From IMG/VR virus record IMGVR_UViG_3300031965_000010: a DNA stretch of 64,000 nucleotides; one strand, given 5' to 3'. This DNA comes from an uncultured virus (IMG/VR IMGVR_UViG_3300031965_000010). Its lineage: Duplodnaviria; Heunggongvirae; Uroviricota; Caudoviricetes. Shown one piece after another: positions 3,332 through 40,903 of the stretch (positions are counted from its first letter, which is position 1; each line of letters starts with the position of its first letter). Both the position numbers and the translations under genes were made by a program. Under the pieces are notes generated by a model. That model saw only the letters and a list, made by a program, of their open reading frames with translations. It was not told where the DNA came from and made no database searches.

Positions 3332-3822
3332 CACCCGCCGACTATCGCCAAATACAAAGACTTCGCGAGTCACTCGTCGAGCTGAAGAAATCAGCTCCGA
3401 AGGATGCTCGTGCTCTTCTCGATCGCGCTGCTCGTTCCTGTGAGGTTCTTCTCGAAGAGCACGATGAATATCTTCGGGTCCGCAAGGCCAAGGCCGAGGT
3501 CAAAGCCAAGAGGGATGCAAAGCTTGAAATACGCCTGCGTGGCTTGTCGCCGCGACCCCCGCCTGACGTTATGTGTTTCATTCGGTCTGGCTACAGCCTT
3601 AATGCCGTACTGTCCCGATCTGTCGCTGTTAGCGCCTTTGTGATGAAGAACAGTGGCATGTCGACGAAAGAAATCGCTGCTGTCTTTGGCTTGAGTGCCG
3701 GACACGTATCTCAAAATCTTCGCTACTTACACGTCGAAAATTTCTCGGCGGATGTCGTCGAGTGGTTCCGCGACGCACGGTGGGTTAGTGATCAACACCT
3801 GGCCAGCAACGCTGACGACTAA
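3328..3822 (+). CDS. Protein with C-terminal helix-turn-helix
   Basis: GMSTKEIAAVFGLSAGHVSQNL; GTG start overlapping the previous stop. Confidence 0.6.
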   Translation: MTPADYRQIQRLRESLVELKKSAPKDARALLDRAARSCEVLLEEHDEYLRVRKAKAEVKAKRDAKLEIRLRGLSPRPPPDVMCFIRSGYSLNAVLSRSVAVSAFVMKNSGMSTKEIAAVFGLSAGHVSQNLRYLHVENFSADVVEWFRDARWVSDQHLASNADD

Positions 3823-7835: not shown

Positions 7836-8900
7836 TCAGCGCGAACGCCCTGAAATCAAAGTGCGCGCGCTCTCTCGTATGCGTCGCTCGATGACGCGTA
7901 CGTACTCTCGTGAGTAGCCGTGCTTTGCGCCGATTGCCTCGAGTGAGCTTGTCTCCGTCGCTGTTACGTTCGCGGCGCCCTTTCCGTCGTCCGCGAGAAG
8001 CCGCTCGAAGACGATGTCGCGAGCAACCCCTTCGAGCGGCGTGTTTTCGAATTCCCGCAGCACGTTGAAGAGCACCTCGCGCACGAAGTCCGTCACCTGT
8101 CGGCGCTCGACTTCTGCGTCAGGTAACCTGGCGTCTTGGTCTGAGAGCGTGTCTCCGAACGTGGACGCTTCGTCGTCCGCGTGCGAGGTATAAGGGGCGT
8201 CGATCTTCGTAACTGGATTCCTTCTACGAACCTTCTTCTTCGTGTGCACGTCCACTTCGTAGCCGTCCGCCATCGCTCGACGGCTCACGGAAACGAGCGG
8301 AGAATCGTCGCGCTGTAATCGCTGCCTGAGTCTCCCTACGGCTGCACGAATCCAGTGCATCGCGAATGTGGAGAAACGTTTGTCGAAACGAGGATCGAAC
8401 GTCTCGGCAGCGCGAATGAGCCCAAGCATCGCTTCCTGTGTGTACTCGGTCTTCATCTCCGGCGACGCGCTCTTAGAGAAACCGCCTACGAACAGATGCG
8501 CGAGGCGTAGGTTTTTCTCGACTAGGAGATTGCGCGCGTCGACGTCGCCGAAGGTCTGCACTCGATACGCGAGGATTTTTTCCTGCTCGGCTGTGAGTGT
8601 TTTCCCGACGCGTCCGAGCGGCGTGTGCGGGCCGAGCGCGAGCGGCGTGTGCGGGCCGAGCGCGGACGTGGGGGTGGGGTCGGTGGGGTCGGTGGGGTCA
8701 GTGGCGTCGGTGCCGTCGATCGGCGGTCCCTCAGTGGATAGGCCGGGCGCGAGCGTCCCCTCTTCGATGTGTTTGAGGACTTCAGACGCCTCCGCGAGCA
8801 CGCCTTCGGGTCCGCGCAAGCGCTCGGCCTCTTCGGTCACTGGGCCTTGATTGCGCTTCTTTCTGAGCGGGTGTTTCGCGTATATCGGCGACGGCTTCAT
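7836..8900 (-). CDS. Viral RNA polymerase sigma-70-family factor (RpoH/RpoD-like)
   Basis: Region 2 ARNLLVEKNLRL..QEAMLGLIRAAETFDP..RFSTFAMHWIR; region 4.2 SLEAIGAKHGYSREYVRVIE. Confidence 0.9.
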   Translation of the reverse strand: MKPSPIYAKHPLRKKRNQGPVTEEAERLRGPEGVLAEASEVLKHIEEGTLAPGLSTEGPPIDGTDATDPTDPTDPTPTSALGPHTPLALGPHTPLGRVGKTLTAEQEKILAYRVQTFGDVDARNLLVEKNLRLAHLFVGGFSKSASPEMKTEYTQEAMLGLIRAAETFDPRFDKRFSTFAMHWIRAAVGRLRQRLQRDDSPLVSVSRRAMADGYEVDVHTKKKVRRRNPVTKIDAPYTSHADDEASTFGDTLSDQDARLPDAEVERRQVTDFVREVLFNVLREFENTPLEGVARDIVFERLLADDGKGAANVTATETSSLEAIGAKHGYSREYVRVIERRIRESARTLISGRSR

Positions 8901-9723: not shown

Positions 9724-10008
9724 TCATCTGTCCCTGTAATGTCCGAGAACTTGAACGATCGTAACGAGGTTCCCTTCGATGCGATAAATAATACGGTGCT
9801 TCTTCGTCAGCCGTCGGGAGTGGTACCCGGAGTAGTCGTAACGCAGCGCTTCGTAGTCGAAGCCCGGTGCCACAGGATTGGCGCGTATGTGCGCAACGAT
9901 TTGCTTCAACCGTTTTTCCCACTGTGGGTTTTCTTCAACCCGCGGTAGCTGTTCTTTGACGACTTTCTCGTCGTAGACGACGTCCCACTTCTTCGAAGAC
10001 ATGCTCAA
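9724..10008 (-). CDS. yoeB: Txe/YoeB-family toxin
   Basis: EALRYDYSGYHSRRLTKKHRIIYRI...GHY. Confidence 0.9.
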   Translation of the reverse strand: MSMSSKKWDVVYDEKVVKEQLPRVEENPQWEKRLKQIVAHIRANPVAPGFDYEALRYDYSGYHSRRLTKKHRIIYRIEGNLVTIVQVLGHYRDR

Positions 10009-10298
10009 TATCCAAGATCTTCAGCGCGCACGACCCGTTTGCGCGCGGCGCGCGTCTCGCTCTGTCGAATGTCTTCCTTCAATTCCGGAAAGTGTTGGTC
10101 GACGTAGAGCGTTTCCTGGATGGCTTTCCATTCCTCGCGAGATACGATCACAACTGCCGCTCCGTTTCGCGAGACCACTGTGATCGGCCCGACCTCACCT
10201 GCGTCCACCTGATCTACGATTGAAAACAATTCTCGACGAGCCGCCGTGACGTTGATCAGGTCGTCTTCCATGAAATCGCCGTCTGGGTTTTTGATCAC
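10005..10298 (-). CDS. yefM: Phd/YefM-family antitoxin
   Basis: NVTAARRELFSIVDQV...VVIVSREEWKAIQETLY; GGGAGG SD before GTG 10298 (alternative ATG 10271). Confidence 0.9.
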   Translation of the reverse strand: MIKNPDGDFMEDDLINVTAARRELFSIVDQVDAGEVGPITVVSRNGAAVVIVSREEWKAIQETLYVDQHFPELKEDIRQSETRAARKRVVRAEDLGY

Positions 10299-10317
10299 GA
10301 AAGCCTCCCAATGAGAA

Positions 10318-10346
10318 AGCGTACGTTTAACCGTACCTGTCGTCAA
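10318..10346 (-). promoter_or_regulatory. Sigma70-type promoter of the TA operon with palindromic operator
   Basis: TTGACG-N17-TACGCT; GTACG-N6-CGTAC at 10321-10336. Confidence 0.75.
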
Positions 10347-10627
10347 GCTCCGCCGTCGGCGTGATGTTACGTCTCGTGCGTCTACGCGTGCGTCTACGCG
10401 TGCGGCGGTAACTCCCGCATTCGAGGCGACGCGGGCAGCTCGCCGGCTATCCACACGTCTCGGACCTCGCCAGCAACGACCTTGGCGCACGTTCCGTCGG
10501 GGAATCGAACCATGATTGTGTGGACTGGCGAGACCTTTCCGAGCGGGAAGGAAACCATCCGGCGCGTGGTGACGTCTCCCACGAATCTCGAAGCGAATCT
10601 TCGGCCGCTCGCTGCGTGCACGAACGC

Positions 10628-11023
10628 TCATCTACCACGCTCGCGACGCAAGCGTGCTTCGCGATCGGTCGGCGTTTCGAGCGCGTCACGCGCGAGGTCA
10701 ACAGCGAACCTCGCCATCTCCGGAGGCAGTCGCACGATCAAAAGCTCGTCGTGACAGTGACACGTCACGGTGCCCTCCACGCCAGCCGGATAAGGAACGC
10801 CGTCCTCCGTCATCGGTCGGAAAGAAACCAAGATCGAAGTCCAGTGCTCGGCCTTACCGTTCGACAACTCCACAGAGCCCTCGAAGGCTTCAGTGATGCC
10901 CGGCGGGACATCCTTTATTGACCTCGTCCACTTCATGGCGCGCAAGGCGCCCTCGACGCGTCGGAGCGTCTGTTGAATGTCCGGGGGTTGACGGGAACCT
11001 GTACTGAGTGTGGGCGTCGGCAT
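10628..11023 (-). CDS. Hypothetical protein
   Basis: TTGACG-N16-TAATGT 6 nt before the ATG. Confidence 0.55.
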   Translation of the reverse strand: MPTPTLSTGSRQPPDIQQTLRRVEGALRAMKWTRSIKDVPPGITEAFEGSVELSNGKAEHWTSILVSFRPMTEDGVPYPAGVEGTVTCHCHDELLIVRLPPEMARFAVDLARDALETPTDREARLRRERGR

Positions 11024-17655: not shown

Positions 17656-18378
17656 TCACCGAGCCGTACCGGGACGGTCCTGCCACGAACCTTCGGGGCC
17701 GAGCTGTCCAATACGACGAGCGATTTTAAGCTTGTCGTAAGTCTGCGCCGGCATGCGGACCCCAGACACGTACGCGCCCGCGAAATCGATTCGCTGCGTC
17801 GCGACTGCCGGGACGTCCGGAGGAATCACGAACGGGTTCGGAATGGGGGCGGTACCAGCCGTCGGAGTGAGACGGAACAACACTCGGAAAATGGTCTTCG
17901 GCGGCAAATAGATGAGCGCGTACTCGTTCTGCATCCCGAAATCTCGCAACGACGGCTGATCGAGTCCGAGAAAAGTCGTCCCGCGCACAACCTCTCGATC
18001 TCGATTGTTCGGCGTCGCAGCAATCGTCGGCGAATTGTAGTCGTGTTCGACAAGGCGCGGCTGGTTGTTTGCCTTGTCGTTGTCGAACAGCACGAATCCA
18101 GCCAGCTCGCTCGGAGGGATCAACTGCACCGTTTCCGTCGCCAGTCCGACATTAATACGTCGCCAGCAATGCGGAAACACGTTCATGACCACTTCGCCCG
18201 TGTTGTCCGGAACAACGTGCTGGTGAACGATGAACAACCCCGTCGAAACGATGGGCGCGGCCTCGGCGCCCGTGCCCGTGAGGTCTTGACGCTTGTCGAT
18301 ATCGAACGACACGACCTCGTCGTCGACGAGGTATCCGAGCGGATTGTTCGCCGGATACGGAATGCCTAGACGTGTCAT
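17656..18378 (-). CDS. Putative jelly-roll minor capsid/vertex protein (divergent paralog)
   Basis: Beta-rich; C-terminal strand AGAYVSGVRM as in neighbours. Confidence 0.5.
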   Translation of the reverse strand: MTRLGIPYPANNPLGYLVDDEVVSFDIDKRQDLTGTGAEAAPIVSTGLFIVHQHVVPDNTGEVVMNVFPHCWRRINVGLATETVQLIPPSELAGFVLFDNDKANNQPRLVEHDYNSPTIAATPNNRDREVVRGTTFLGLDQPSLRDFGMQNEYALIYLPPKTIFRVLFRLTPTAGTAPIPNPFVIPPDVPAVATQRIDFAGAYVSGVRMPAQTYDKLKIARRIGQLGPEGSWQDRPGTAR

Positions 18379-19376
18379 CGGGGTCTCCTACCGCGTTCCA
18401 ACATTCGCGCGTCATCGTCGCTGTTGACGTCGTTCAGATTGTACGGGTGTCGTCGAGGATCGCTACTCGTGAGCCACGCGCCGTCCTTGAGCGCGTCTTG
18501 ACCTGTGTAGTAGCGGTTGCCGTGGAACTCGACGCGCACGGTTGCTTGTTCGACGCGGTTACCTGCGCTGCGATCGTCGATGCCGCCATACGGGAACGTC
18601 GCATCCGATGCTGCGATTTGGTAGAGGTCCATGATGGGCCGGAAGAGAAACGAGACCTGACCGTCGCGCTCGAACTGCCATGGTGTGTCGAACTCGAAAA
18701 GCTCGCTGTCCGGAATCATGTTGCCGCGCGTGTTCAACAGTGCGCCGCTCGGCATCCAATCCTGCGCGTACTGTCGTCCGCTCTTTTCGTCGACGATGTT
18801 CCAGAAATACGGAATGAACGGCATCACCGTGGTGAAGTCGCCGAGCACCTGTTGCTGCCAGGTGTACTGAATCGCCGTCGTCGGCGGACCGACGAATCCG
18901 CCAGCGGAAAATCCGTTGCCTTCGAGCGCTCTGTAATCGTTCAACGGCGTAATTCCATTGCGTGCGACGCCCGCGAACTGTGTGTACCCGGCCTCGATGC
19001 CCACCACGAGATTGTGTGCCTGCAAAATTCCAGGCGGCGGAAACAGGACCGGAATCCGGTACGTCTGCCCCGCGAGAAAAATCGGATTCACCTGCAACGC
19101 GATGAACGCGACGGGCGGCACCGCGTCCGGGTTCGTCGGAAACTGCGCGATAGTGATCGTAGTCGATGTGTCTGCAACGAACGTCTGCTCACCAATGGCG
19201 ACCGATGGCTGTCCGTTCGCTAGCGGCGTGTTCAGACGCTCATTGATTCCGGCGAGCTGCGCGCGCAGGTTTCTCGCACGCACCGCGAGCTGTTGAAGCC
19301 AGCCGACACCTTGGCCAGAAGAACCACGCGCCAACCGACCTGTTTCAACGACCCGAGTAGGGATGATTCGCTTCAT
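18375..19376 (-). CDS. Putative jelly-roll minor capsid paralog
   Basis: WNIVDEKSGRQY..WMPS; VRVEFHGNRY; N-terminal coiled coil. Confidence 0.6.
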   Translation of the reverse strand: MKRIIPTRVVETGRLARGSSGQGVGWLQQLAVRARNLRAQLAGINERLNTPLANGQPSVAIGEQTFVADTSTTITIAQFPTNPDAVPPVAFIALQVNPIFLAGQTYRIPVLFPPPGILQAHNLVVGIEAGYTQFAGVARNGITPLNDYRALEGNGFSAGGFVGPPTTAIQYTWQQQVLGDFTTVMPFIPYFWNIVDEKSGRQYAQDWMPSGALLNTRGNMIPDSELFEFDTPWQFERDGQVSFLFRPIMDLYQIAASDATFPYGGIDDRSAGNRVEQATVRVEFHGNRYYTGQDALKDGAWLTSSDPRRHPYNLNDVNSDDDARMLERGRRPR

Positions 19377-19413
19377 CGTAGCTCGCCCTTCTTACGACTA
19401 TCTCTCGACGGGT

Positions 19414-20106
19414 TCATCGGAGCGCCGCTACTTTCTTCTCGCCTTCGAGAATGCCAACGATCTTGTAGCGGTGCTGCCGCACGATATCGACTTCAACGTC
19501 ATCGATGAGCGCGGGCTCCTCGATTGTTCGGATGCCTAGAAAGGTCGGCGTCACTCGACACACGAGACTCTTCGAGCGCGCCAGGAACAGCGGAACATCG
19601 AAAACCATCCCAGACGGAGTCTGCGAAGCACCGCCCCATCGAGACGCCCCTACCCACTTCAACATGTCGACGCAGTACGCAGCGGACACGGGGGTGTCGA
19701 TGTTTTGGTATTCTTTCCCCTCGTAAATGAGTGCGAACGTCGCATCCGCCAATGTGTTGATGTCTGTGTACAACGTAGCCGGATTTGGGACGAATCCAGG
19801 ATCTCCATACACGGAAGACCACGTCGTTTCACGGAAGGTGGTCTCGGACGGAGTGCCGTTCACCGGGTCGACGACCTTGCAGAGCGGGTACAGCAACAAC
19901 CGATAGGCCCAAAAGTCCGCGTCCGCAGGAACGTTGAAGATCAGATTCGCAGAGGGGGCTGCGCCCTGCGAAAACTCGGCTGAAGCAGGGAGCGGCGTGT
20001 AAACGCGATCGCCGCTGCGCAAACCTCGCACGTTCTGCGCGGCGCGCTGCGCTCGCTCAAGCAAACGTGCTGCCTTATCTGTTTGAGCTACGATCTCCGT
20101 CAACAT
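19414..20106 (-). CDS. Putative jelly-roll minor capsid paralog
   Basis: PADADFWAYRL; IVGILEGEK. Confidence 0.6.
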   Translation of the reverse strand: MLTEIVAQTDKAARLLERAQRAAQNVRGLRSGDRVYTPLPASAEFSQGAAPSANLIFNVPADADFWAYRLLLYPLCKVVDPVNGTPSETTFRETTWSSVYGDPGFVPNPATLYTDINTLADATFALIYEGKEYQNIDTPVSAAYCVDMLKWVGASRWGGASQTPSGMVFDVPLFLARSKSLVCRVTPTFLGIRTIEEPALIDDVEVDIVRQHRYKIVGILEGEKKVAALR

Positions 20107-20172
20107 CGCCGACCTCCCTCTCCGTCCCCGCCGTCCATCACTCCGATACCATACGCAACTACGCTACGCCGC

Positions 20173-20886
20173 CTACGCTCCGTAAACCTTGTATCCAACG
20201 AGCGATAAGAAGACTCTGGAGCTGATTGAATCTTCGCCACTCAATGAACACACGCCCATGTTGAACACTTCAACTCTCACGTCACCTGAACGCGGGACGG
20301 TGAACTCCGAGAAGAGTGCGTTCTTCATGTTCGACCCGAGCCCCGGTCGGATACTGGAGATGTACGACAGCGGAACGACACCCCGATCGAGCGAGAACGG
20401 ACCCGTCGACATTCCGGCGACGAGATTTCGTCCGGTCGCGACGTCCGTGATGCGAAGCAGCGGATCTATGGTGCTGTCGTCGGCGCCGAACGACCCGTCG
20501 TCCGCGTAGTCCTCAATAAAAAACGGCGGATTTGGTGAGGACCGTACGATCTGAATGGCTCCGAAAATACCTGTGACCACGAACGCCGCGTCTTCTTGAT
20601 TCCGTAAATAGCCGATCTTCGCGTTTGAGAACCCAAACGTGTTGGGGTCGTTCTGCGCCCCGAGAAGAATGCCGTTCTGTTGGTCGCGGTCGTCGACGGC
20701 GCTGAGAAAATAAGCCCGGTGTTCGGTCGAGACGTCGTCCGCCGGCATGACCGGAATCCGACCGTCGTTCAAAATAGCGAGCTGTTCGTCAACAAGCTGT
20801 AGGTCTCGCTTCGTCGCCAACAGAAGCTCGCGCGCCGCGTCCAACTTCACCCGGTGGTGGTCGGGTCTTTGGTTTTCATCGACCAT
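20173..20886 (-). CDS. Putative jelly-roll minor capsid paralog
   Basis: QEDAAFVVTGI; RITDVATGRNL; VFLSLVGYKV. Confidence 0.6.
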   Translation of the reverse strand: MVDENQRPDHHRVKLDAARELLLATKRDLQLVDEQLAILNDGRIPVMPADDVSTEHRAYFLSAVDDRDQQNGILLGAQNDPNTFGFSNAKIGYLRNQEDAAFVVTGIFGAIQIVRSSPNPPFFIEDYADDGSFGADDSTIDPLLRITDVATGRNLVAGMSTGPFSLDRGVVPLSYISSIRPGLGSNMKNALFSEFTVPRSGDVRVEVFNMGVCSLSGEDSISSRVFLSLVGYKVYGA

Positions 20887-20889
20887 AAA

Positions 20890-21531
20890 TCAGCCGCCTT
20901 CTCTGTAACCGGAAATAAGCATTGCGACGACCGCTGACGGATGCGGTCCGAAGCCAGTGTCGAAAACCCGCATGCCCGCTCCGAGCAACTCACACTCGAA
21001 TGTGAACGTCTCCATCGGTTCGATGATCTGCGGGTTACGGAAAGAGAGATGGTTTCCAACTTGTGTTCGTCCGCCTGCTCGTGCGAAGCAGCGCCCTTTC
21101 TGCGAATACCAGCGCTGTTGAATGGACGTTTGAAAATTCCAACGCCAGTTGAACGGAAACACACCTGCCGTCGCTGCTGCTGCAAGCCGTGCGTCATATG
21201 TCGCAGAGCCCGCGACGATCGGCGTCGTCGGACGAATCAAGTACGGCTGAAACGCGATTTCCCGCACATACACACGTGAACTGTGGTTTGTGAAGATCGA
21301 TTGCTTGACGTTGTTTCCTGCGAGCGCGTCCGACGAAGCAGGGGTCGCCGCAGCGAACGTGGAAGGAAGTTGATCAAACCTCGCTTCGATCGAAGCGAAG
21401 AACGGAATCTCTCGCTGAATCGGTTGCGAGGGTTCGATTGCTCGAACAACTCGACTAATCAACGCGTCCGCGTGTTTGTTCAAGTCTACAAGCTCGGACC
21501 ACAATCCCGAACCGATGGATGGGTTGCTCAC
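20890..21531 (-). CDS. Putative jelly-roll minor capsid paralog
   Basis: RVYVREI; WNFQTSIQQRWY; VAMLISGYRE. Confidence 0.55.
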   Translation of the reverse strand: MSNPSIGSGLWSELVDLNKHADALISRVVRAIEPSQPIQREIPFFASIEARFDQLPSTFAAATPASSDALAGNNVKQSIFTNHSSRVYVREIAFQPYLIRPTTPIVAGSATYDARLAAAATAGVFPFNWRWNFQTSIQQRWYSQKGRCFARAGGRTQVGNHLSFRNPQIIEPMETFTFECELLGAGMRVFDTGFGPHPSAVVAMLISGYREGG

Positions 21532-21562
21532 AGCGAACCTCCAATCATTGTTCTACTGGACA

Positions 21563-22204
21563 TCACAGTGCACTCCCGTCCGGCACTTCGTGTCCGACGA
21601 ACGATATTTGAAGCACGTATTGCTGAATGGTTCCGTCTGCGAAAAACCCGGACGCGCTCTGATTCATCTCGCTTCTAAACGGTTCGACCGTCGAGAAAAT
21701 TACACTGCCACCACCGAGAATCGTTCGACGCGGAAGCCACAGCGGTCCCGTGTATCCGCCGCCACCGAAGAGAGACGGCAACGGTTGATCCATCCATTCT
21801 CGATCTGTACCTGTGTCCCGGACGCGCCAGAAATAGTCGAATAGGTTGAGCCTGATGTTCCAGGGCAACGTCACCTGTACGGAAACGTCTTCTCCCGAAT
21901 ACGAATCCTCGGCGGTTCCGACTGCGCGGAGGAAGCTTTCCACGTAAGCGCAACGAAAAATCATACCGGTCTCGACGGTGACCGAGCGCTCTTGAGGCTG
22001 AAGGTCGCCCGGCTCGAATTGGAAATCGATGCTGTACCGTCGGTATTGAATACCTGCGAAATCGGTCGGAAAGTCGCCGGCCGGTGCGTTCACCTCGAGA
22101 AGTCCGTTGAGCTGCGCCGTCTTCGATTCGAGCTGACGCTGGAGGCGTCGATACTCGTTCGCTAGCTCCACGATTTCGTTCTGATCACTCATTGCGCACT
22201 CCAC
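21563..22204 (-). CDS. Putative jelly-roll minor capsid paralog
   Basis: WRVRDTGTDREWMDQPLPS; LQISFVGHEV. Confidence 0.6.
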   Translation of the reverse strand: MECAMSDQNEIVELANEYRRLQRQLESKTAQLNGLLEVNAPAGDFPTDFAGIQYRRYSIDFQFEPGDLQPQERSVTVETGMIFRCAYVESFLRAVGTAEDSYSGEDVSVQVTLPWNIRLNLFDYFWRVRDTGTDREWMDQPLPSLFGGGGYTGPLWLPRRTILGGGSVIFSTVEPFRSEMNQSASGFFADGTIQQYVLQISFVGHEVPDGSAL

Positions 22205-22227
22205 TCCGACTGCCTACTTGACGTCGC

Positions 22228-23067
22228 CTACAGGTTCGGTGCCTCGAGGTGCGCCGTACCCTTGAACACGAGCACCACGTACGCCTTCACGCTCGCCGCC
22301 TCGAAAGCCGTCGCGCCGTCGAGAATGGAGCCCATGCGGATCTCCTTCACGAACAACCGCGGTTCGATCTTCGAGCCCTGTTCCCAATTCAGCACGCTCG
22401 CCGTTTCCCTGTTTGCGATTCGTCCACCCTGGAACATCGTCGACGGCAGGCGCTGGTCGTGCATCCTGCGCCCCCTGATTCGGTCGTACAGCTCAATCTC
22501 AAACGAGATGTTCGGAAGGTTTGGCTGCGCTGAGCTGAGCGTAGAAAATGTGCCGCCGAAAAAGTCGAGAGGCATCGCGCCACCGTTAGGGCCAACCCCA
22601 GGATTGGGACCCACCGCATCGAAGATGTCTCCGACTCCGTTGGGGTTCGTGTACGGAACCGCGAAGCCGGGGTTCGATGTGTACCCCCAGTTCACGAACC
22701 CAAACGCGCTCAAGCTCTTCACCCTGACGGACTGGTTCCGGCTGACGATGATGTCGCCGTTGCGAGGCACCACGAACTTGGACGGATCTGCGAGCGTCGC
22801 GAGGGTTTGGAAGCCGTCCTGTCCGACGAGGTTGCCGGGACGGCCGGCTGTGGTCAAAGGCAGCGGGCCGTACAGGACCGGCGTGCAGTAGCTCTCGATG
22901 CGACCGGGGCCTTGGTCGTACGGGGTGGGCTTCAGGAGCAAATCGTTGAGGTCGTCGAGCTTGCTCCCGATCAAGTCCATGAATCGCTTGAAGGGCAACT
23001 GACGATGTTTGTCGAGGAGGTTCCCGAAGTCCGGCTTCACGTCATAGTCGGGCTGCTTGGTACGCAT
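22228..23067 (-). CDS. Putative jelly-roll minor/second capsid paralog
   Basis: IELYDRIRGRRMHDQRLPS; VVLVFKGT. Confidence 0.6.
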   Translation of the reverse strand: MRTKQPDYDVKPDFGNLLDKHRQLPFKRFMDLIGSKLDDLNDLLLKPTPYDQGPGRIESYCTPVLYGPLPLTTAGRPGNLVGQDGFQTLATLADPSKFVVPRNGDIIVSRNQSVRVKSLSAFGFVNWGYTSNPGFAVPYTNPNGVGDIFDAVGPNPGVGPNGGAMPLDFFGGTFSTLSSAQPNLPNISFEIELYDRIRGRRMHDQRLPSTMFQGGRIANRETASVLNWEQGSKIEPRLFVKEIRMGSILDGATAFEAASVKAYVVLVFKGTAHLEAPNL

Positions 23068-23207: not shown

Positions 23208-23291
23208 TACCGGGAACGGGACTCGAACCCGTACGAGCTTGCGCCCTGTCGATTTTAAGTCGACTGCGGCTACCTGTTACGCCATCCCGGC
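23208..23291 (-). tRNA. tRNA-Leu(UAA)
   Basis: GCCGGGA/TCCCGGT-A acceptor stem, GTCGA-CTTAAAA-TCGAC anticodon arm, long variable arm, GGTTCGAGTCC T arm; CCA not encoded. Confidence 0.93.
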
Positions 23292-23347
23292 TGGTACACG
23301 CTACTCTCGTGGTGACAAGTAGTCCAGTATTGCTTTACGCTGGTCGC

Positions 23348-24325
23348 ATGAAGAGACCCAAAGGACTCCCGGCCTCACCAGGTATCTACAAAATCGAATG
23401 CGACGTGACTTCAAAGGCGTACATCGGACAAGCGACCAGCCTTCGAGCGAACGCAAGCAACCATCTATACAAGCTGAATCTCGGCATCGACTACAACCCA
23501 CCGCTCCAGGCCGCCTACAACAAATACGGCGCGAACAACTTCACGTACTCACTGCTGGAGCTTTGCGCGGAAGCCGATCTCACCGCGCGCGAGCAATGGC
23601 ACATGGACGCCGTTCCAAAGGGTAAATTGTTCAACACGAAGCCGGCCGGACCAAGCGGTACCCTCGGACTCAAACAACCAGAAGAGCAAAAACTCAAACA
23701 CAGTCGATCGAAGGGTGGACGCCCTTTCTACGCCACTCACGAGACCACGGGCGAAGTCCACCACTTCGAACACGTCGGCGAAGCCTGTCGAAAACTGCCT
23801 GGCCTCCAACGCGCGCACGTTTACTCCGTCCTGCACGGAACCCGCACAAGTCACAGAGGGTTCACGTTCGACTACGACCCGAGCTTTCCGATCCCGACAC
23901 ACAAACACAAAGCCAAGCGACCTCTCGGTGGCGACCATCGAAGTCGCGCGCTGATCGGAACCTGCATCGAAACGGGAATGGAGACAACCTACGATTACGT
24001 CGGTGCCGTGAAACACGCCGGGTTCTCCACTTCAGCCGTCTATCTATGTCTCGCTGGCGGGATGCAAACCCACAAGGGTTTTCGCTGGCGGTACGCCGAC
24101 GGGTTGCCTCATAGAACTTCGACCAAGACTGAACATCTGAAGGGAGCGCGCATCAAGCATGGAGGCTCGCGCGCGATCGTGGGCGTGCATCGAGTCACCG
24201 GAGAGAAAGTCCGTTTCGAATACATTCGCCAAGCCGCTGACGCACTGGGCGTACATCCACAGAACATCTCCGCCGCGTTGAAGAAGGGGTGGGCTACCAA
24301 CGGTTACGTCTGGACCTATGAATAG
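23348..24325 (+). CDS. Free-standing GIY-YIG homing endonuclease with repeated NUMOD/IENR-like domains
   Basis: PGIYKI...AYIGQ...REQ; three C-terminal repeats (TGE..F..V..A...H.G..W.Y); antisense to the virion module. Confidence 0.9.
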   Translation: MKRPKGLPASPGIYKIECDVTSKAYIGQATSLRANASNHLYKLNLGIDYNPPLQAAYNKYGANNFTYSLLELCAEADLTAREQWHMDAVPKGKLFNTKPAGPSGTLGLKQPEEQKLKHSRSKGGRPFYATHETTGEVHHFEHVGEACRKLPGLQRAHVYSVLHGTRTSHRGFTFDYDPSFPIPTHKHKAKRPLGGDHRSRALIGTCIETGMETTYDYVGAVKHAGFSTSAVYLCLAGGMQTHKGFRWRYADGLPHRTSTKTEHLKGARIKHGGSRAIVGVHRVTGEKVRFEYIRQAADALGVHPQNISAALKKGWATNGYVWTYE

Positions 24326-24331
24326 ACGTAT

Positions 24332-24364
24332 AAAAGAAAATGGCCCCTGTAGGGGCCACTTTCA
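24332..24364. terminator. Bidirectional intrinsic terminator
   Basis: A-tract, TGGCCCCT-GT-AGGGGCCA stem, T-tract, between convergent genes. Confidence 0.85.
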
Positions 24365-24370
24365 CATTCT

Positions 24371-25465
24371 TTAGAGGACGTCGCGAGTTTTGCCAGTTGT
24401 TATCGGTTGGCTCTTTATCCAACCATCTGAATCTTTCGAAGCAGAGCAGACTATATCATCATCCCTTAGGATGCCGGGCACTCGTGGGCGGGATTGTTCG
24501 GCTCCCCCGCCTAGTCGTTGAACCTTCTACTCTGTTCTCTTTCGAGTCCGCAGAGCAGCTCGGCTGCTGATTGTCCAATCCACCGTTCTTTTCGACGTTC
24601 GCGCTTACCGTTACCAGTTACGCTGTAGTGTCGGTGGCTCTAAGGAGTTTCCAGCAATTCACCCAGTTTGCTGCACACCTTCCGGCGTGCAGGGACTTCA
24701 CGCAGCGAGGGCCTGTGTGTGTCGAACGCCGAACACCTTGTTCAGCATCGACTCAATCCCGTCGAGCACGCAGCCGAGCAGCTTGATGCCGTCGAACGCG
24801 TTGAGGTACGCCAAAGGGTCAAGCGCACTAGTATACGCCGTTGCCGCGTTGCCTGCGGTACCAGCAGTACCACCGGTACCCGCGCCAGGAACGTTACCAG
24901 TGATGGGTTTGTAGTTGAAGAAGTCGAGCTTCGTATGAAACCCTTGACGGGCAGGGATGGGAATATCTTTTGCTAAGAGCAAAATGTTTTCCTGGCTAGG
25001 CCATCCATTTGAAGCGATGTTGCGCGAGTTTTCAGTTGTACTGCCAAAGATGCCCATGCCTGCGGGGCAGTACACCAATTGCGACGTGAACTGATCTTTC
25101 TCAGAGCAGTTGAACGTCAGGTGGCAGCCATAGCCGAGCAGGCTGTACAGGTCGAGCGCGCGGCTGTTGGTGCCGGCGACGGTTGCGCCGTTGAGCGCCG
25201 GCAGGAGCGCCGGGTTGCCGTAGGCGTCGAATTCCGAATCCTTGAGGGACTGAAACATCATCACCGCACGAATCGCCTTCACGACGAAGGTCTGATCTGA
25301 CGTGAACGCGCCAGACGTTTGCATGTTGGTGAATTCGGCAGAACTGTTGGGCGAGTCCGAAAAGAGCCGCACGCCGTTGGTCACTTGCGAGACGCCGATT
25401 CCTCGGACCGCCATTGACCAAACGGGTTGGTGGATTCTTTCACGGGCTCCGTCAAAACGAGGCAT
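24371..25465 (-). CDS. Candidate major capsid protein (single jelly-roll type), intron-split: exon 1 25465-24756, exon 2 about 24394-24371
   Basis: AGGAAGG SD; own promoter and flanking terminators; TNMQTSGAFTSDQTFVVKAIR and LGCVLDG motifs parallel the downstream paralogs; exon 2 encodes KTRDVL*. Confidence 0.7.
24395..24755 (-). ncRNA. Group I self-splicing intron (ORF-less) in the capsid gene
   Basis: P AATTGCTGGAAA (24648-59), Q AATCAGCAG (24564-72), R GTTCAACGACTAG (24511-23), S GATATAGTCT (24448-57). P2 hairpin CTGCACGCC-GGAA-GGTGTGCAG. IGS AGUCCC pairs with exon GGGAU (U-G). Ends ATAACAACTG; boundaries +/-1 nt. Confidence 0.9.
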
Positions 25466-25662: not shown

Positions 25663-26892
25663 TCAGCGCTGCGATGGTCCGCGGAAGAGCCCGCCAGCGA
25701 GGATTCCGCCCTCACCCGGTGCCCACTCCGTCGTGTCGTCGAGACCGTTCACGGCCCACTCAGTGTCGTTGTCCGCCGACGCACGCGGACGCTGGTTGCT
25801 GTACGCGCCACCGCCTCGCGCTACGATCTGATCGACGCCGTACGCGCCCATGCCGTTCGTCGCCCACTCAGTGCGGTTGTCGGACGTGTTTCGCGGACGG
25901 CTGTTGCTGTACGCGCCGCCGCCACGAGCGACCGATGTGGTCCCGAGACCGCCAACGGTCGTGTAGTCGCCGATGTCGCGGAAGATGCCGGCTTTGGCGT
26001 ACGAACGACCACCCACGGTCGTGTAGTCGCCAACGGTCGTGTAGTCACCGAGACCAAGCGCCGTCTTCGCCTTCGCCGCGAGACCATCAGTCTTCCCTTC
26101 GGAAGCCGCGGAAACGGCCTGCATGACCGCTGCGAGCAAACCACCGATGGCGACAGCACCCTTGTACTTCGGAGCGAACTTGTCGGCGAGCTTGTAGCCA
26201 ACCACCGACACGAGCGCCGTCGAAAGCGCGGGCATGTACTTTACGATCGCCCGTGGCTTCTTGTCCGCGTCGAGGAACGCGCCACGCACAGCACCAAGTC
26301 CGTTCGTTGCGGCCGATGCCGTGCTCGTCTCCGTGACAGCCTCAGGAGTCGTCACGGCGGCTTCAGCAACTTCCTTCGGATCTGCCGTCGTCGTGACGAG
26401 GTCGCTCAGTTTCCGGCCAAGCATCGCGAGACCGACCATCGACACAGCGCTCGCACCGACCTGGGGCGCAAGCACCTTCGCCGCTGTCCACAGACCTCCG
26501 AGACCGGGGTTCATCTTGAGGTGCATCGCTTTCGCGACGGCCGATTTCTTCGGGCTACCGCCTCTGAGAGCGACGCGACGGAGCGTCGACAGACGCTTCG
26601 CCTGCGTCATCGCCACGCTGCGACGCACAGATCCGCGCTTCATCCCGCGCGCCCTCTTACGCAACGCACTCGCCTTGCGCATGAGCCCGCGGCTCGTCGC
26701 TCGACGACGGCGTGCCGCCTTCGAAAGACGACGACGCTTCTTTCGGGGCTTGGCAGCGCCCGGAGGCGTCACGCGCGCGAAAATCCCGGAACCGGGATTG
26801 CGGCGCAAACGTCGACGAAGCCGACGACCGCGCCTGCGGCGCGAAGGGTTGCGAGCGGCTTTGCGAGCGTGACGTCGACGACGGCGGGCCAT
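25663..26892 (-). CDS. Arg-rich (protamine-like) membrane-associated core protein, paralog 2
   Basis: MARRRRRH...; hydrophobic helices; GDYTTV repeats. Confidence 0.75.
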   Translation of the reverse strand: MARRRRRHARKAARNPSRRRRGRRLRRRLRRNPGSGIFARVTPPGAAKPRKKRRRLSKAARRRRATSRGLMRKASALRKRARGMKRGSVRRSVAMTQAKRLSTLRRVALRGGSPKKSAVAKAMHLKMNPGLGGLWTAAKVLAPQVGASAVSMVGLAMLGRKLSDLVTTTADPKEVAEAAVTTPEAVTETSTASAATNGLGAVRGAFLDADKKPRAIVKYMPALSTALVSVVGYKLADKFAPKYKGAVAIGGLLAAVMQAVSAASEGKTDGLAAKAKTALGLGDYTTVGDYTTVGGRSYAKAGIFRDIGDYTTVGGLGTTSVARGGGAYSNSRPRNTSDNRTEWATNGMGAYGVDQIVARGGGAYSNQRPRASADNDTEWAVNGLDDTTEWAPGEGGILAGGLFRGPSQR

Positions 26893-26969
26893 GGAAACAC
26901 CTACAAGGGAAAGAGAAACCAACGAGAAGAAAGACGGAGGGGCGATCTCTCACCCCTCCGCCTCACGCA

Positions 26970-28340
26970 TCAGCGCGACGACGGTCCGCGAAAGAGACCA
27001 CCCGCGAGGATTCCGCCCTCGCCCGGCGCCCACTCCGTCGTGTCGTCGAGACCACGCAGCGAGTCGTGTGCGAACTCGGTCGCGTTGTCCGCTCCCTCGC
27101 CCACGGTCGTGTAGTCGCCGATCTCACGGAAGATCCCCGCTTCGGCGTACGCACGACCGCCAACGGTCGTGTAGTCGCCCACGGTCGTGTAGTCGCCGAG
27201 GCCAAGCGAAAGACCGAGAGCCTCCTTCGCCTTCGCCGCGAGACCATCGGTCTTGGTCGACGTCGCCGCCGCTGCCGCAACCGCCTGAACAACCGCCGCC
27301 AAGAGCCCGCCGATGACGACAGCACCCTTGAACTTCGGAGCGACCTTGTCCGCGACAACGTACCCGAGCCCCGCAGTCGCGGCCGTGACGATCGAAGGCA
27401 TGTACGCCGCGAGCGTGGGCTTGTCCGCGAAGAACGCCTTCGGTGTCGCTGCGGGTCCCGTGATCATCTCTGACACCTGACGACCAATCATCGCCGAACC
27501 AAGCAGCGCGACCGCACCTGCGCCAGCCTGCGGAAGGAGGACCTTCGCCGCCGTGAGGAGCCCAGCCATGCCCGGATTCGTTCGAATGTGCATCGCCTTC
27601 GAAAGAGCACTCTTGCCAGCACGCTTCGGGTAGCGCTTCGTCAAACGACGAAGAGCCGACGCGCGATGCGCCTGCGCAGTCGCGACCGCGCGACCAAGCG
27701 AACGCTTCTTTCGGCGGCGCGCCACCTTGCGGAGACGCGACACAACCGCGAGGCCGTGCGAACGTCGCTTGAAACGACGCTTACGGTGACGAGTCACCTT
27801 GCGCGAAGAACGCTTCACGAGCGCCTTCGACGGGTTGCGGCGAAGACGACGCTTCCTGCGACGCGGGCTAGAACGACGAGCGCGCTTCGCGCCAGCGATC
27901 ATCCGCTTCGTCGCGGCACGCTGCGCGGCCGAACGACGCTTCCTGCTCGGGTTGCGCGCGAGACGACGCTTCCGACGACGCGGGTTCGTGCGCGGCGCGG
28001 ACATGGCAATCGCGGCCGGCGATCCTGCCTGCACCGGATTGCGGCGACGACGCACGCGGGACTTCCGGCGCTTCGGGTTGGACTTCAGGCGCGTGAAACG
28101 ACCGAGCTTGTTGCGACGAGCGCGGGGATTGCGACGGGCCTTCTTTGCAGAGCGACGCTTACGACGACGAGCCATGGGATTTTTCCTTTTCGTGTGGACC
28201 TGTGCTTTTTTGGCAGAACGCCGAGACCGACGACGAACCCCACGCACAGCCGGGCGTCCCGGATTTACGACGAGCAACTCGACCGGATTCCGGCGCATGC
28301 GGGTTCGGGCAGAGCGACTCGGCGAACGCGAGAGTTTCAT
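26970..28340 (-). CDS. Arg-rich (protamine-like) membrane-associated core protein, paralog 1
   Basis: Long R/K-rich tract punctuated by NP; C-terminus nearly identical to paralog 2; alternative ATG at 28175. Confidence 0.75.
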   Translation of the reverse strand: MKLSRSPSRSARTRMRRNPVELLVVNPGRPAVRGVRRRSRRSAKKAQVHTKRKNPMARRRKRRSAKKARRNPRARRNKLGRFTRLKSNPKRRKSRVRRRRNPVQAGSPAAIAMSAPRTNPRRRKRRLARNPSRKRRSAAQRAATKRMIAGAKRARRSSPRRRKRRLRRNPSKALVKRSSRKVTRHRKRRFKRRSHGLAVVSRLRKVARRRKKRSLGRAVATAQAHRASALRRLTKRYPKRAGKSALSKAMHIRTNPGMAGLLTAAKVLLPQAGAGAVALLGSAMIGRQVSEMITGPAATPKAFFADKPTLAAYMPSIVTAATAGLGYVVADKVAPKFKGAVVIGGLLAAVVQAVAAAAATSTKTDGLAAKAKEALGLSLGLGDYTTVGDYTTVGGRAYAEAGIFREIGDYTTVGEGADNATEFAHDSLRGLDDTTEWAPGEGGILAGGLFRGPSSR

Positions 28341-28347
28341 GAGGAGA

Positions 28348-28370
28348 ACTCTACCGCCGTTTTTTGCTAC
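28348..28370 (-). promoter_or_regulatory. Viral late-type promoter GTAGCA-N11-TAGAGT
   Basis: Motif match; 7 nt before ATG 28340. Confidence 0.75.
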
Positions 28371-28424
28371 ATCATCAACCACTCAAAACGCGTAGTCACC
28401 ACAGCGCCAATAACGCCAATGACG

Positions 28425-36905: not shown

Positions 36906-38150
36906 ATGCCCGCCCGTCCCTCCCTTACTGCCGTCCCATCGACCCCCGCCGCTCCCTCGGCCGACGCGTCTCCCTTGCGAGCTTGGCTCACCTCAGCCGA
37001 GTCGCAATACCTGCAACGCGGTCCGGTGCTCCGCGCACTGGCGCTCGCGATGATCTGCGCCCGCCCCATAAACGTCTTGCTAGTCGGCCCTCCCGGCACG
37101 GCGAAAACCGCCATCTCTCACGCGTTCGCTAGTGCCTGCGGCGCGCGCTTCCTGGCCCGCACTCTCTCCCCTTGGACCGACGCCGCGGAATTGCTCGGTC
37201 CGGTTGACCTCGCTGCGCTGCAACGCGGGGAGCTGCAACGCGCGACGTCAATCACGCGCCCCACGCTCCTAGACGCGGACATGGTCCTAACCGACGAGCT
37301 TCCCCGCGCCTCGCCCGGCATCCGCGCGATGATGCTGTCCGCACTCTCTGACCGTCGCACACCATCGGACGACCCAGTGCCCGCGCACGTCATCGTGGCC
37401 GGTGCCAACACGCGGTTGACCTCCGAAGAGGACCGCGCGCTAGTCGATCGTTTCGCGCTGCGCGTCGAGGTTCCGCGGCTCATGTCGGCGCCAGATCTGC
37501 GTGCCGTGCTCACTCGGGAGGTCACCGTCAACGGCGCCCCCCAAACGTCCGCGGCGCTCCCCGCGCTCCCCGTTGGCCTCGTCGCCGCGCTGCGCGCACA
37601 CTCCGCTACCGTCGACCTCCCCGGCGACGTCGCCGACGCGTTGACCTCCCTTGCCTTGGCTCTGCGACAACCCGCGCCATCGGGCGCAAGCTATCCCGAC
37701 GTGTCAGAGCGCCGCTGGGTCCTCACAACGCGCGTACTCCAAGCGTCCGCCACGCTCTCCGACCGTTCCACCGTGGAATGGTCCGATCTGACCTCGACAC
37801 TGCCGATGATTCTCGACGACGGACCCGAGTCACGCGCCGCCGTTGCGAACGCAATCACAGCGTGCGTGCCGCGTTACGTGCGCGCTTTGGATGACCTCGA
37901 CGCCGCAATTACAACGGCGACCGAGCGCGCGCGCCGCGTCGGGGGTGTCGTCGACATCCGCCCCGGCGAAGCAGACGAGCACGCCAAACGCGCCGAGACA
38001 TTCGACGCGCTCCTATCCGCGCTACGCCCCTACGGCGCTTCCGTCATCGCGCAAGCCGAGGACCGTATCGAGCGCGGTAACGATGCCATCGACGCCGCGT
38101 ACGTCGACGGCGCGAACGCCTACAACGCAGCACGCAAGGCCCGCCGATGA
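36906..38150 (+). CDS. MoxR/RavA-family AAA+ ATPase
   Basis: VLLVGPPGTAKT, ELLGP, LTDE, ALVDRF, SERRW. Confidence 0.9.
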   Translation: MPARPSLTAVPSTPAAPSADASPLRAWLTSAESQYLQRGPVLRALALAMICARPINVLLVGPPGTAKTAISHAFASACGARFLARTLSPWTDAAELLGPVDLAALQRGELQRATSITRPTLLDADMVLTDELPRASPGIRAMMLSALSDRRTPSDDPVPAHVIVAGANTRLTSEEDRALVDRFALRVEVPRLMSAPDLRAVLTREVTVNGAPQTSAALPALPVGLVAALRAHSATVDLPGDVADALTSLALALRQPAPSGASYPDVSERRWVLTTRVLQASATLSDRSTVEWSDLTSTLPMILDDGPESRAAVANAITACVPRYVRALDDLDAAITTATERARRVGGVVDIRPGEADEHAKRAETFDALLSALRPYGASVIAQAEDRIERGNDAIDAAYVDGANAYNAARKARR

Positions 38151-39259
38151 CCGCTCACACGTCCGCCCCGTCCGCAACGTCCGCCACGAAAGGAACCGCC
38201 CCTATGAACGCCCCCGCAAAAACCACGTCCGCTAGCTCCGTCGTCGCCACGCTCGCCACCGTCGCCGCACACGTCGACCCCGCCACGTTTCACAAAGACA
38301 CGCCCCCCGGCGTCGCGGGCGTGCTCGTCTTCTTCGGACCCCCGTCAACGAAGCCCGCGCCGTCGACGATGCGCAACACGTTCGAGGATGCGATCGTTGG
38401 GCGCGCGCTCCCCGTCGACGCCACGCCCGCGATGCACGAACGCGCTAGCGCGTTCCTCGCCTCGCTCCCCGACGTCGTTAGCCCGGTCGCCGCGCTCGGT
38501 ATCGCCGTCAACCATGCGACGGACGGGAAATCGAAGTGGGTGCACAACCGCACGTTTCAAAAGGCGTCCCGGCACACCTACTGCGCCGCCAACGTCACGG
38601 CGGACACCGTGAGCATCCACGGCGCGGGAACGTGCGCGGAGGCATCCGCCGACGGCACCTTGACGATTGAATCCGGAGTGCCGCAAGCCATCGCGGACCG
38701 TCTCCGCGCCGCGTACCTCGCCGCGCGTGGCGTCGTCGAGACATCCCGCGTGTCCGCGCTGATCGCCGCGTACCTCACCAAAATGGGCGGCCGGGCGATC
38801 GGCTCCGCCGCGTACCTACTCCCATCGATCGACCCCGTCACGTGCGGCGTGCTCGCCGGTCTCTCTGACCTCGGGGGTTTCGCGTTGACCTACGCGGTCG
38901 CCGACCCCGCGCAAGTCGCCGCGCTCGCTGCGCCCGTCACCCAGTCAATCGAAGAGCAAATTGCCGACGTGACCGAGGCCGCGCGGCTCTTCGTTGAAAA
39001 GGCCCGCGACGTTGCGAACGGTGCGACCGTCGAGGTCACGACCGACGACGGCACGACGAAAACCCGCAACGTGTCGATCAAGTCGACCTCCATCGATACG
39101 CTGCGCGCGAACATTGAAAATGCCCGCAAGGCCGCGTCATTGTGGCGTGACCGTCTCCAGCTCGCGTCCCTCGACGTCGACGACGCCTTGACCGCGCTCG
39201 ACGCCGACGCCGACGCCGCATCCCGCGCCGCGCTCGAAGCCATGAAGGCCCGCAAGTAG
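38147..39259 (+). CDS. Hypothetical protein between the AAA and VWA genes
   Basis: Coupled 370-aa ORF. Confidence 0.75.
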   Translation: MTAHTSAPSATSATKGTAPMNAPAKTTSASSVVATLATVAAHVDPATFHKDTPPGVAGVLVFFGPPSTKPAPSTMRNTFEDAIVGRALPVDATPAMHERASAFLASLPDVVSPVAALGIAVNHATDGKSKWVHNRTFQKASRHTYCAANVTADTVSIHGAGTCAEASADGTLTIESGVPQAIADRLRAAYLAARGVVETSRVSALIAAYLTKMGGRAIGSAAYLLPSIDPVTCGVLAGLSDLGGFALTYAVADPAQVAALAAPVTQSIEEQIADVTEAARLFVEKARDVANGATVEVTTDDGTTKTRNVSIKSTSIDTLRANIENARKAASLWRDRLQLASLDVDDALTALDADADAASRAALEAMKARK

Positions 39260-39327
39260 CGCGCGCGACGCTCACGTCCTGCCCCCGTCCCTCGACGGGG
39301 TCACAGGTGAACGCCGCTCGGTTCCGT

Positions 39328-39361
39328 CCGTCCCGTCCCGTCCCGTCCCGTCCCGTCCCGT
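39328..39361. repeat. (CCGTC)n pentanucleotide microsatellite
   Basis: About 7 copies, just upstream of the VWA gene SD. Confidence 0.9.
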
Positions 39362-39379
39362 TTCCCTCCAGAGGTTCCC

Positions 39380-40903
39380 ATGTCCGCACCCCTTGACCCC
39401 CGCGTCGCCCGCCTTGAATCCGCATCCGACCCCGCGCCGTCCGCGCACGAGCGCGGACCCGTGGCGCGTCTCCAATGGCGCCATGGCCTCGACGTTGACG
39501 TCGACCTCGCACGCGTCACCGTCGACACGCCCGCCGTGCCCATGGAATGGTCCGCGCTCCTCGCCGAAACACACGCGGCGCTCCTCGATCCGACGGGCCT
39601 GCGTTCGCTCGACCGACCCTCGCCGATCGGCGTGTCCGTGACGGATTCCCTTCGCGCTGCGCCCGCGTGGCAAGGGCTCGCCGACGCCGCACGCTCGCAC
39701 CCGCTCATCGCCCGCGAGGCCGTTGTGCAGCTCGCCGACGTCGTCAAGGGCGCGCTATTGAAAGCCGGGGCGCGTTCCGCCACGGACGCCCGCCGTTCCC
39801 TCGCTGACCTCGACGCCGCACGCGCCGCCCTTGAACGCGCACGCGCCGCGCAGAAGGCCGCGCAAGGCGACACATCACCGGAAGGCCGGAAGGCGCTCCG
39901 CGAAGCACTCAAGGCCGCCACGGACGCGCAAGCGGCCGAGGAACGCGCGCACGGCGCGGTCAACGCGGACGCCGCGATTGCGCAACGTACGGGCGATGCA
40001 CTCGACGAGGCCGGCGACGCTATCGCCGCAATCGCGCAAGCCGCGCAAGGTCGCGCCGACGCCGCGCACGCTTTTTCGAACGCGTGCGGGTCCGGGGTCG
40101 GCGTCGGCGGTACGGCCCCGCTCGCGGATGACGTCGTAAAGGCCCTTACTCCCGAGGTCGCCGCGATGCTCCGCGCCGTGGGCGCCATCCGCAAGGCACT
40201 CCAAGCGGGACGCGCAGCGCGCCACGTGCGAGGCCGGGAAGGAATGGTGGGCGTCACTCAGGGAGGAATCGAGCACGCCGCAGATCTGACCTCGCTGGCC
40301 CTCGCTGGCCTTGCTGGACACCTTGGCTCCCCGATGGCTGCTTTGACGCGCCTCGCGCTCGTTGAGAGTCGCGCCGACGTCGTCGAAAAGGGCGGCGGGC
40401 TCGCACGCAACGGTGACGTGATCGTAGTCGTCGATCAGTCCGGGTCGATGGAAGGCCCCCGCGCCTTGTGGGCCGGTGCGCTCGCGCTCGCGGTCCTCCT
40501 CGAAGCTCGCGCCGACGGTAGAACCGCCGCGCTCGTCACGTTTGACACTCACGTGCGCGCTTCGATCGTCGTCGATTCACCCGATAGCCTCGCTCGTGCC
40601 GTCGTCGCGTTGTCCGTACAATCCGACGGCGGAACCGGACTACGCGCGGCATTGTCCGAGGCGTGCGCCGTGCTCGGTCGCATGCCCCACGGGGGAGACC
40701 CCGCCGATGCGCTGTTGATCACGGACGGTGGATGGGACGCCGACGCGTTGCAAGGATGGCCGGACCGCGCCCGCCTGCGTGGCTGTTTCATCGGTGGCAG
40801 CGCACCGACCGGCAGCACGTTCGCGTCCACGTGGGAAGTCCGCGCAACGGAAGGGGTGGACGCGGAAGCGCTCGCCGTCGAGATTGCGTCTGTAATCGTC
40901 TAA
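39380..40903 (+). CDS. ViaA-like von Willebrand A domain protein
   Basis: MIDAS DQSGSM...GGT...LITDG. Confidence 0.9.
   Translation: MSAPLDPRVARLESASDPAPSAHERGPVARLQWRHGLDVDVDLARVTVDTPAVPMEWSALLAETHAALLDPTGLRSLDRPSPIGVSVTDSLRAAPAWQGLADAARSHPLIAREAVVQLADVVKGALLKAGARSATDARRSLADLDAARAALERARAAQKAAQGDTSPEGRKALREALKAATDAQAAEERAHGAVNADAAIAQRTGDALDEAGDAIAAIAQAAQGRADAAHAFSNACGSGVGVGGTAPLADDVVKALTPEVAAMLRAVGAIRKALQAGRAARHVRGREGMVGVTQGGIEHAADLTSLALAGLAGHLGSPMAALTRLALVESRADVVEKGGGLARNGDVIVVVDQSGSMEGPRALWAGALALAVLLEARADGRTAALVTFDTHVRASIVVDSPDSLARAVVALSVQSDGGTGLRAALSEACAVLGRMPHGGDPADALLITDGGWDADALQGWPDRARLRGCFIGGSAPTGSTFASTWEVRATEGVDAEALAVEIASVIV

Follow-up and report, generated by a model that had tools for sequence, protein, structure and literature searches.

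What becomes of a capsid subunit when a self-splicing intron sits within the last codons of its gene? This locus raises the question in the window, the whole 64,000-nucleotide stretch of viral DNA that we analysed. A sequence-only reading had proposed a group I intron near the end of a candidate major capsid gene, allowing two C-termini, and the intron is borne out: the 64-kb window and the 76,144-base record hold a single group I match, RF00028 at 24427-24709 on the minus strand (66.6 bits, E 1e-14; cut-off 50 bits), which spans the whole model. The proposed extent, 24371..24756, does contain a group I intron, but the intron proper is the 363 nt at 24393-24755 on the minus strand (Table 1). 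The elements had been described as complete. This holds for the core from P3 to P7, for P2 and for pairing of the internal guide sequence (IGS), but P7.2, a second hairpin between P7 and P3, was not seen in the intron, and no clear P10 was found next to the IGS. Introns of subgroup IA2 carry both P7.1 and P7.2 between P7 and P3; because P7.1 is present here without a visible P7.2, we describe the intron as IA-type.

Table 1. Features of the capsid gene end and its surroundings, in window coordinates.
Feature	Position	Strand	Basis or remark
Exon 1 of the candidate major capsid gene	24756..25465	-	Codons 1-236 and two bases of Ile237; ends at the U of the U.G pair
Group I intron, IA-type, without internal endonuclease	24393..24755	-	RF00028; pairings by coordinate
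Enlarged P1 loop, 59 nt, two hairpins	24697..24755	-	18 codons open in the host frame; codes the read-through tail
IGS, complementary to the last five exon 1 bases	24692..24696	-	Folding and pairing check
Catalytic core	24449..24666	-	RF00028; pairings by coordinate
P3; P4	24666-24661/24479-24474; 24657-24652/24569-24564	-	
P7; P7.1; P8	24516-24512/24453-24449; 24511-24487; 24473-24460	-	
P9.0, P9, P9.1 and omega-G (24393)	24393..24448	-	Folding, pairing check
Exon 2: last base of Ile237, six codons (KTRDVL), stop	24371..24392	-	Matches intronless loci L001, L002, L004
Intrinsic-terminator-like hairpin 3' of exon 2	24336..24363	-	
Free-standing, convergent GIY-YIG endonuclease gene	23309..24325	+	NUMOD-like repeats; Asn for I-TevI Arg27
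tRNA-Leu(TAA)	23208..23291	-	Upstream of the endonuclease gene

Rfam's own P1 begins too far downstream in this intron. Unconstrained folding of 24690-24762 returns a P1 that closes a 59-nt loop containing two hairpins (z -2.8, equalled by 2 of 200 shuffles) and pairs the exon end with 24696-24692, which places the 5' splice site after U24756. Checked by coordinate, P1 joins 24760-24756 to 24696-24692 with a U24756.G24696 pair at that site, P2 joins 24691-24684 to 24679-24672 under a GNRA loop, and P3, P4, P7, P7.1, P8, P9.0 and P9.1 all pair. With the 5' site at 24756, the omega-G at 24393 is the only terminal G that gives a 243-aa product ending in KTRDVL, and precise removal of the intron restores the conserved gene, with its 243 aa, its native ending and the same junction as in intronless loci. 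Other splice pairs near the predicted sites were rejected. The spliced ending had been written earlier as LDGI(A)KTRDVL; KTRDVL stands, but the optional Ala is impossible because the splice pair giving Ile-Ala shifts the frame. Judged from sequence, the group I intron is almost certainly real and its spliced ending native, and the intron likely self-splices to yield the normal 243-aa subunit. The P7.1 loop (24495-24502) shares an 8-base complementarity with the 3' side of the large hairpin in the P1 loop (24728-24735, minus strand; p 0.013, loop shuffles). This pairing may form once ribosomes open the P1-loop hairpin, or may be chance.

The native C-terminus can be read from relatives. A protein search found 41 clusters, 63-85% identical, and look-ups for 20 clusters gave 107 sequences including the window's own. 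A six-residue ending of the native TRD type closes 72 of these 107 close homologs, and in 17 more it is followed by 8-9 additional residues. Six, the window's protein included, break at the window's junction (site A); seven break after KTR (site B), six of them ending in CEA; four keep the whole native ending and add 27 aa, with tails ending A[LI]AA (site C); one is of a remaining type. Introns at the three sites in the tailed homologs were placed from protein ends. None of the 11 metagenome loci represented by DNA has an intron: in L002 and L004 the coding sequence continues unbroken through the window's junction, and L001, the nearest of them (83%), likewise has Leu as its last residue. Arg240 is nearly invariant, and Arg stands at position -4 in 67 of 101 distant homologs, an indication that the ending is ancient. 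Since homologs and intronless loci share this ending, splicing would restore the ending of the family and, the spliced ending being native, the normal subunit would need splicing. The earlier view that capsid completion depends on splicing thus stands; the intronless homologs to which it appealed exist, and ESMLNKVF-like ends, named as what would speak against it, are not the family pattern.

Several side observations came with this survey. The 8-9 aa extension, which ends in Val and is intron-free, occurs in some alleles (L002, L003 and 17 proteins), and L002 and L003 show it to be real coding sequence. One site-B protein, P0011, has an odd tail that looks like a frameshift into the terminator. 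L158 was considered as an insertion and rejected; at 2501-3695 it carries a tandem second copy of the capsid gene, a 3' part followed by a full copy. In the window's own record the capsid gene is single-copy. In L148 (2043-3471), a distant capsid homolog, a group I-like intron interrupts the gene near codon 42. It is the second intron seen as DNA in this virus family, and by eye a LAGLIDADG-like motif can be made out in the ORF that it contains; a second endonuclease-like ORF lies 3' of the gene. Translated group I core motifs can be recognised in the N-terminal parts of P0176 and P0190, whose capsid genes are therefore likely to contain at least two introns. RF00028 had no match in 16 distant virus records, blanks that weigh little because the model also missed the endonuclease-split L148 intron. 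A pattern search with the IGS region gave seven chance matches, none with an intron, and the A1 query found no relatives in IMG/VR or GTDB genomes and none in GenBank phages.

The intron-bearing gene likely codes for the major capsid protein of a tailless bacterial virus. The major-capsid reading rests on a mean identity of 71%, the gene's own terminator and its position heading a block of paralog-like genes; Pfam, PHROGs and NCBIfam gave no family match for this capsid-like protein. A model of the intronless homolog P0003, built from 80 sequences, is a single jelly roll (pLDDT 87, pTM 0.81) whose last strand, 227-241, runs through the exon 2 residues. Its best structural match is SPV1 (6oj0_A; Z 8.8, rmsd 3.8, 137 aligned), in keeping with the earlier reading of a candidate capsid gene, followed by the cellular jelly roll PHM (Z 7.5) and P23-77 VP17 (3zmn; Z 7.4). 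Because a cellular protein scores this well, the fold alone is no proof of a capsid. Foldseek probabilities are 0.96 for SPV1 and 0.91 for SH1, with E-values that are not significant, and the Atlas leads, the PM2 P2 and PRD1 P3 families at 0.76-0.77, lie below the Atlas trust level.

The gene context fits a tailless virus, with Arg-rich genes upstream and seven similar-sized genes of unknown function downstream; other genes encode transglutaminase-like, M23, PolA and sigma factor proteins. Upstream, at 25663-28382 on the minus strand, lie the genes of two Arg-rich paralogs in which RRNP repeats and multiple GDYTTV motifs occur. They are candidate DNA-core proteins, and one homolog also lies upstream of the L010 capsid gene. 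Downstream, at 17656-23067 on the minus strand, the seven genes (213-333 aa, without family matches) end in a similar last hydrophobic strand and are candidate jelly-roll paralogs. The claim that the spliced ending fits the terminal strand of these paralogs holds loosely: in five of the seven neighbours, as in the spliced form, a Lys or Arg occupies the second position past the Gly of the matching strand. The record also carries MoxR-vWA genes (36906-40903), PolA (59730-62081), a sigma-70-like gene (7836-8900), a Phd/YefM-like gene (10005-10631) and HNH genes near 62012-64617. A simple Walker A scan of the record, which is 65% complete, found no packaging ATPase, and no profile match ties it to Portogloboviridae or Halopanivirales, of which we do not count it a member. 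Distant relatives lie on IMG/VR records of 75-180 kb, many with terminal repeats, and no described virus family matching these viruses emerged from the literature as judged by titles and the start of abstracts.

Left unspliced, the frame gives 255 aa, 237 native residues and 18 intron-coded ones ending Ala-Leu-Ala-Ala, as the sequence-only reading had written it; a single base separates its stop codon (24698-24700) from the IGS. Missing from the read-through form are the near-invariant Arg and the final part of the last strand; the model of this form, from 41 close sequences, is poor (pLDDT 54), and the 18-residue tail is of low confidence. All six site-A tails end LA[AVT] (four LAA, two LAV or LAT) after 17-25 aa with no earlier stop, and among the 107 none stops right after the splice site, all tails keeping 17-29 open codons. 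Among control introns, P1 calls with a score of at least 9 came from only 18 loci, where read-through ranges from 0 to 68 codons, so the 18 codons here cannot be called unusual. The endings stand out more. Four of 34 distant homologs with non-native ends finish in [LIFV]AA, against 4 of 1879 open frames of this genome, an enrichment of about 50-fold (binomial p 9e-7); two of the four carry translated group I core motifs elsewhere, and three are internal truncations and so cannot be capsid isoforms. The read-through products of the LittleE capsid and BAKA tail introns end, as predicted beforehand, in Ala-Ala, with runs of three and five Ala. The stop falls in a tetraloop hairpin in LittleE and BAKA, in a hairpin arm in the window and after P2 in L025, so that Ala-Ala ends come from at least three RNA contexts. 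Between the hairpin stems of L183 (LittleE) and L184 (BAKA), compensatory changes are seen with the Ala codons kept.

On a quick tree built from 59 of the 107 sequences, each trimmed at the splice site, the site-A rows are scattered beside native-ended sisters (five changes for six rows, a count as low in 333 of 500 shuffles), which fits a mobile insertion. Site-B rows are nearly as scattered. Site-C rows cluster, and the site-C tail may therefore be a real inherited extension.

We lean, without much margin of confidence, towards the view that the tail coded by the P1 loop is a degron that clears faulty subunits. Its starting point is a full group I core with a P1 that defines the predicted 5' site, where joining 24756 to 24392 would restore the family ending. 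On RNA that has yet to splice, ribosomes would read the 18 intron codons and halt just before the IGS, a stop that would keep them out of the core. Lacking the Arg and the end of the last strand, the tailed product could fold in part and disturb assembly, and its spacer and terminal Ala-Leu-Ala-Ala-COOH would be recognised and destroyed by a ClpXP-type protease of the host. A weaker step is that the intron may have spread between viruses by homing, aided by free-standing endonucleases like its neighbour. The E. coli ssrA tag ends in YALAA, the terminal Ala-Ala mattering most, and other Ala-Ala degrons exist; GFP with three tag residues was not degraded, while five or more led to degradation (PMC7652416). 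The account in PMC8138137 also includes ssrA-type or Ala-Ala C-degrons of ClpXP. In the window, the C-terminal Ala-Ala follows a hydrophobic residue, and the tail extends 18 residues beyond the fold. More tentatively, P1 in introns of virion-protein genes may have been selected several times, from different RNA elements, to append a degron that mimics ssrA. We would hold no more firmly that the tag makes insertions survivable in this virus family, in which introns accumulate within the last capsid codons, and that it may couple capsid supply to splicing and to the state of the host protease. Within the literature covered, mostly open-access papers, we found no natural intron-encoded degron, only the engineered SIBR, in which the tag lies 3' of the intron.

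The same ending could instead belong to an ordinary group I intron whose read-through peptide is a neutral by-product, its stop shielding the core and its last residues set by RNA structure and ancestry. Passages that treat in-frame stops close to the 5' site describe them as usual and interpret them as helping the RNA to fold (PMC3984707, PMC2988022, PMC8565351). The last tail codons pair in a hairpin, and because the ALAA codons sit in the P1 loop in this way, RNA structure or common descent could fix them. The six CEA proteins at site B (five distinct tails) do not end in Ala-Ala and, judged from protein ends, look like a related RNA element read differently; two of the six site-A tails end in LAV or LAT. 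Most control introns also lack the ending. Read-through of the Tuc2009 capsid intron gives 55 aa ending in WS and that of the L148 intron 45 aa ending in NGL; Ala-Ala closes 2 of 68 distinct upstream-frame ends among 120 IMG/VR loci that share the intron's P3/P4 motif, and one of six major head protein cases among the 45 control loci scanned, one 302-aa product being without it. LittleE and BAKA, moreover, share a 156-bp segment (PMC3706429) and so count as closer to one observation than two. A by-product free of selection nevertheless sits poorly with Ala-Ala ends arising in at least three RNA contexts, with the absence of any stop right after the splice site among the 107 proteins and with the roughly 50-fold enrichment over background in distant homologs. 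We regard a neutral peptide as rather unlikely, though a serious contender.

The sequence-only reading had suggested a second isoform, and the unspliced product could indeed be a functional capsid variant whose amphipathic C-terminal helix could bind the inner membrane or mark special capsid positions. The tails as a set are amphipathic, which fits an isoform as well as a degron and leaves the isoform some support: twelve distinct tails exceed shuffles, random DNA and random hairpin DNA, with Fisher p values of 3e-6, 2e-6 and 7e-6 to 9e-5, respectively, in a post hoc comparison of non-independent tails. P0011 and P0048 were excluded from these statistics, and only one of P0030/P0046 and one of the four site-C tails were counted. 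The helical hydrophobic moment is strongest at site B, and such a helix could anchor the subunit to an inner membrane or attract proteases itself. The C-terminus also tolerates natural extensions of 8-9 aa in intronless L002 and L003, and the four proteins that add an A[LI]AA tail to the whole native ending cluster on the tree. However, the window's tail alone is not amphipathic (p 0.57; a moment of 0.64 is reached only with the three preceding exon residues), tail lengths and sequences differ widely, 89 of the 107 close homologs have no such tail, and the same ending caps internal truncations. Loss of Arg240 and part of the last strand makes normal assembly of the site-A product doubtful and, with an unconserved tail that ends in ssrA-like ALAA, argues against this role, which we consider improbable. 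It is barely credible that the intron no longer splices and that the 255-aa form is the only capsid protein. Splicing is predicted from sequence alone, and the neighbouring endonuclease looks decayed, but all core pairings are intact, exon 2 keeps its six conserved codons, stop and terminator, and the record holds no second copy of the gene.

The convergent GIY-YIG gene beside the intron matches TIGR01453 (79.4 bits; cut-off 56.05) and carries PF22083 repeats. It ends 11 bases from the capsid terminator and 68 bases from the intron end. Its Asn48 aligns to Arg27 of I-TevI, which we take to be the catalytic Arg; this copy thus lacks that residue and is probably inactive. At the same place in intronless L010 lies a gene, 39% identical, that keeps the Arg. 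With tRNA-Leu, the GIY-YIG gene forms an insert (23208-24325) between the capsid terminator and the next gene, which follows directly in L001 and L005-L008; no tRNA was found in the 11 intronless loci. The arrangement fits a free-standing endonuclease that would target the conserved gene end, with introns as its protected passengers, and that may now be decaying.

In reviews, the in-frame stop of bacterial group I introns is taken to assist folding, and the truncated protein receives little attention. An intron this near the stop codon leaves almost the whole subunit, where a faulty product would harm most. Should the tail be a degron, the ribozyme, itself a selfish element, would code a peptide that borrows the host ssrA pathway and lowers the intron's own cost. 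On a practical level, automated gene calling mispredicts the C-terminus of about 12-16 of the 107 capsid proteins in this family.

The location of the intron alone is not new, as capsid-gene introns are already known in phages. Spliced introns are described in the LittleE capsid and BAKA tail genes, with Tuc2009 cited (PMC3706429), and introns in MCP genes of crAss-like Delta/Zeta phages (PMC7886860); group I introns also occur in chlorovirus genes, in passages that do not name a capsid gene (PMC7019647). Given these precedents, the list of usual phage host genes in the sequence-only reading (DNA-metabolism genes, lysins, terminases, psbA) was too narrow. As in LittleE and BAKA, a likely virion protein here would need a self-splicing-type intron to be removed, and the read-through ends in Ala-Ala, an ending on which the cited passages are silent. 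LittleE, BAKA, Tuc2009 and the crAss-like phages, in contrast, are tailed viruses of HK97 type with internal insertions, whereas the window has a single jelly roll and an unspliced product of almost full length. This fold, as modelled, is shared with SPV1 (Portogloboviridae), P23-77 VP17 and the SH1/HHIV-2/HCIV-1 group; unlike the SPV1/SH1 group, the viruses considered here have no sequence family match, and their genomes of 75-180 kb carry PolA and a sigma factor.

The ribozyme itself resembles phage IA introns (RF00028; T4 td, nrdB, nrdD) in its core helices, the U.G pair at the 5' site, omega-G, P7.1 and an in-frame stop ahead of the core. Introns in 191 GenBank phage records have a similar core, with none covering 80% of the query, and phage IA2 introns are described as heterogeneous (PMC11878797). 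Unlike the T4-type introns, it lies six codons before the stop, has no internal endonuclease and no P7.2 that we could see, and has a structured 59-nt P1 loop that stays open for 18 codons; in td, the first intron codon is already a stop (PMC8565351). Collaborative homing by a free-standing endonuclease has been described (PMC2988022), and the arrangement here, an intron that encodes no endonuclease and ends 68 bases from a free-standing GIY-YIG gene, recalls it; in contrast to that system, the target here is only a candidate, this copy has Asn for Arg27, and the intact homolog occupies the same place in intronless L010. Compared with the ssrA/tmRNA tag of E. coli, the tail is coded in cis by the intron, involves no tmRNA or ribosome stalling and lacks the SspB-binding first half. 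By E. coli rules, which may not be those of the host, it nonetheless has the same last four residues, ALAA, and a spacer above the five-residue minimum, and like the ssrA tag it would mark a faulty product.
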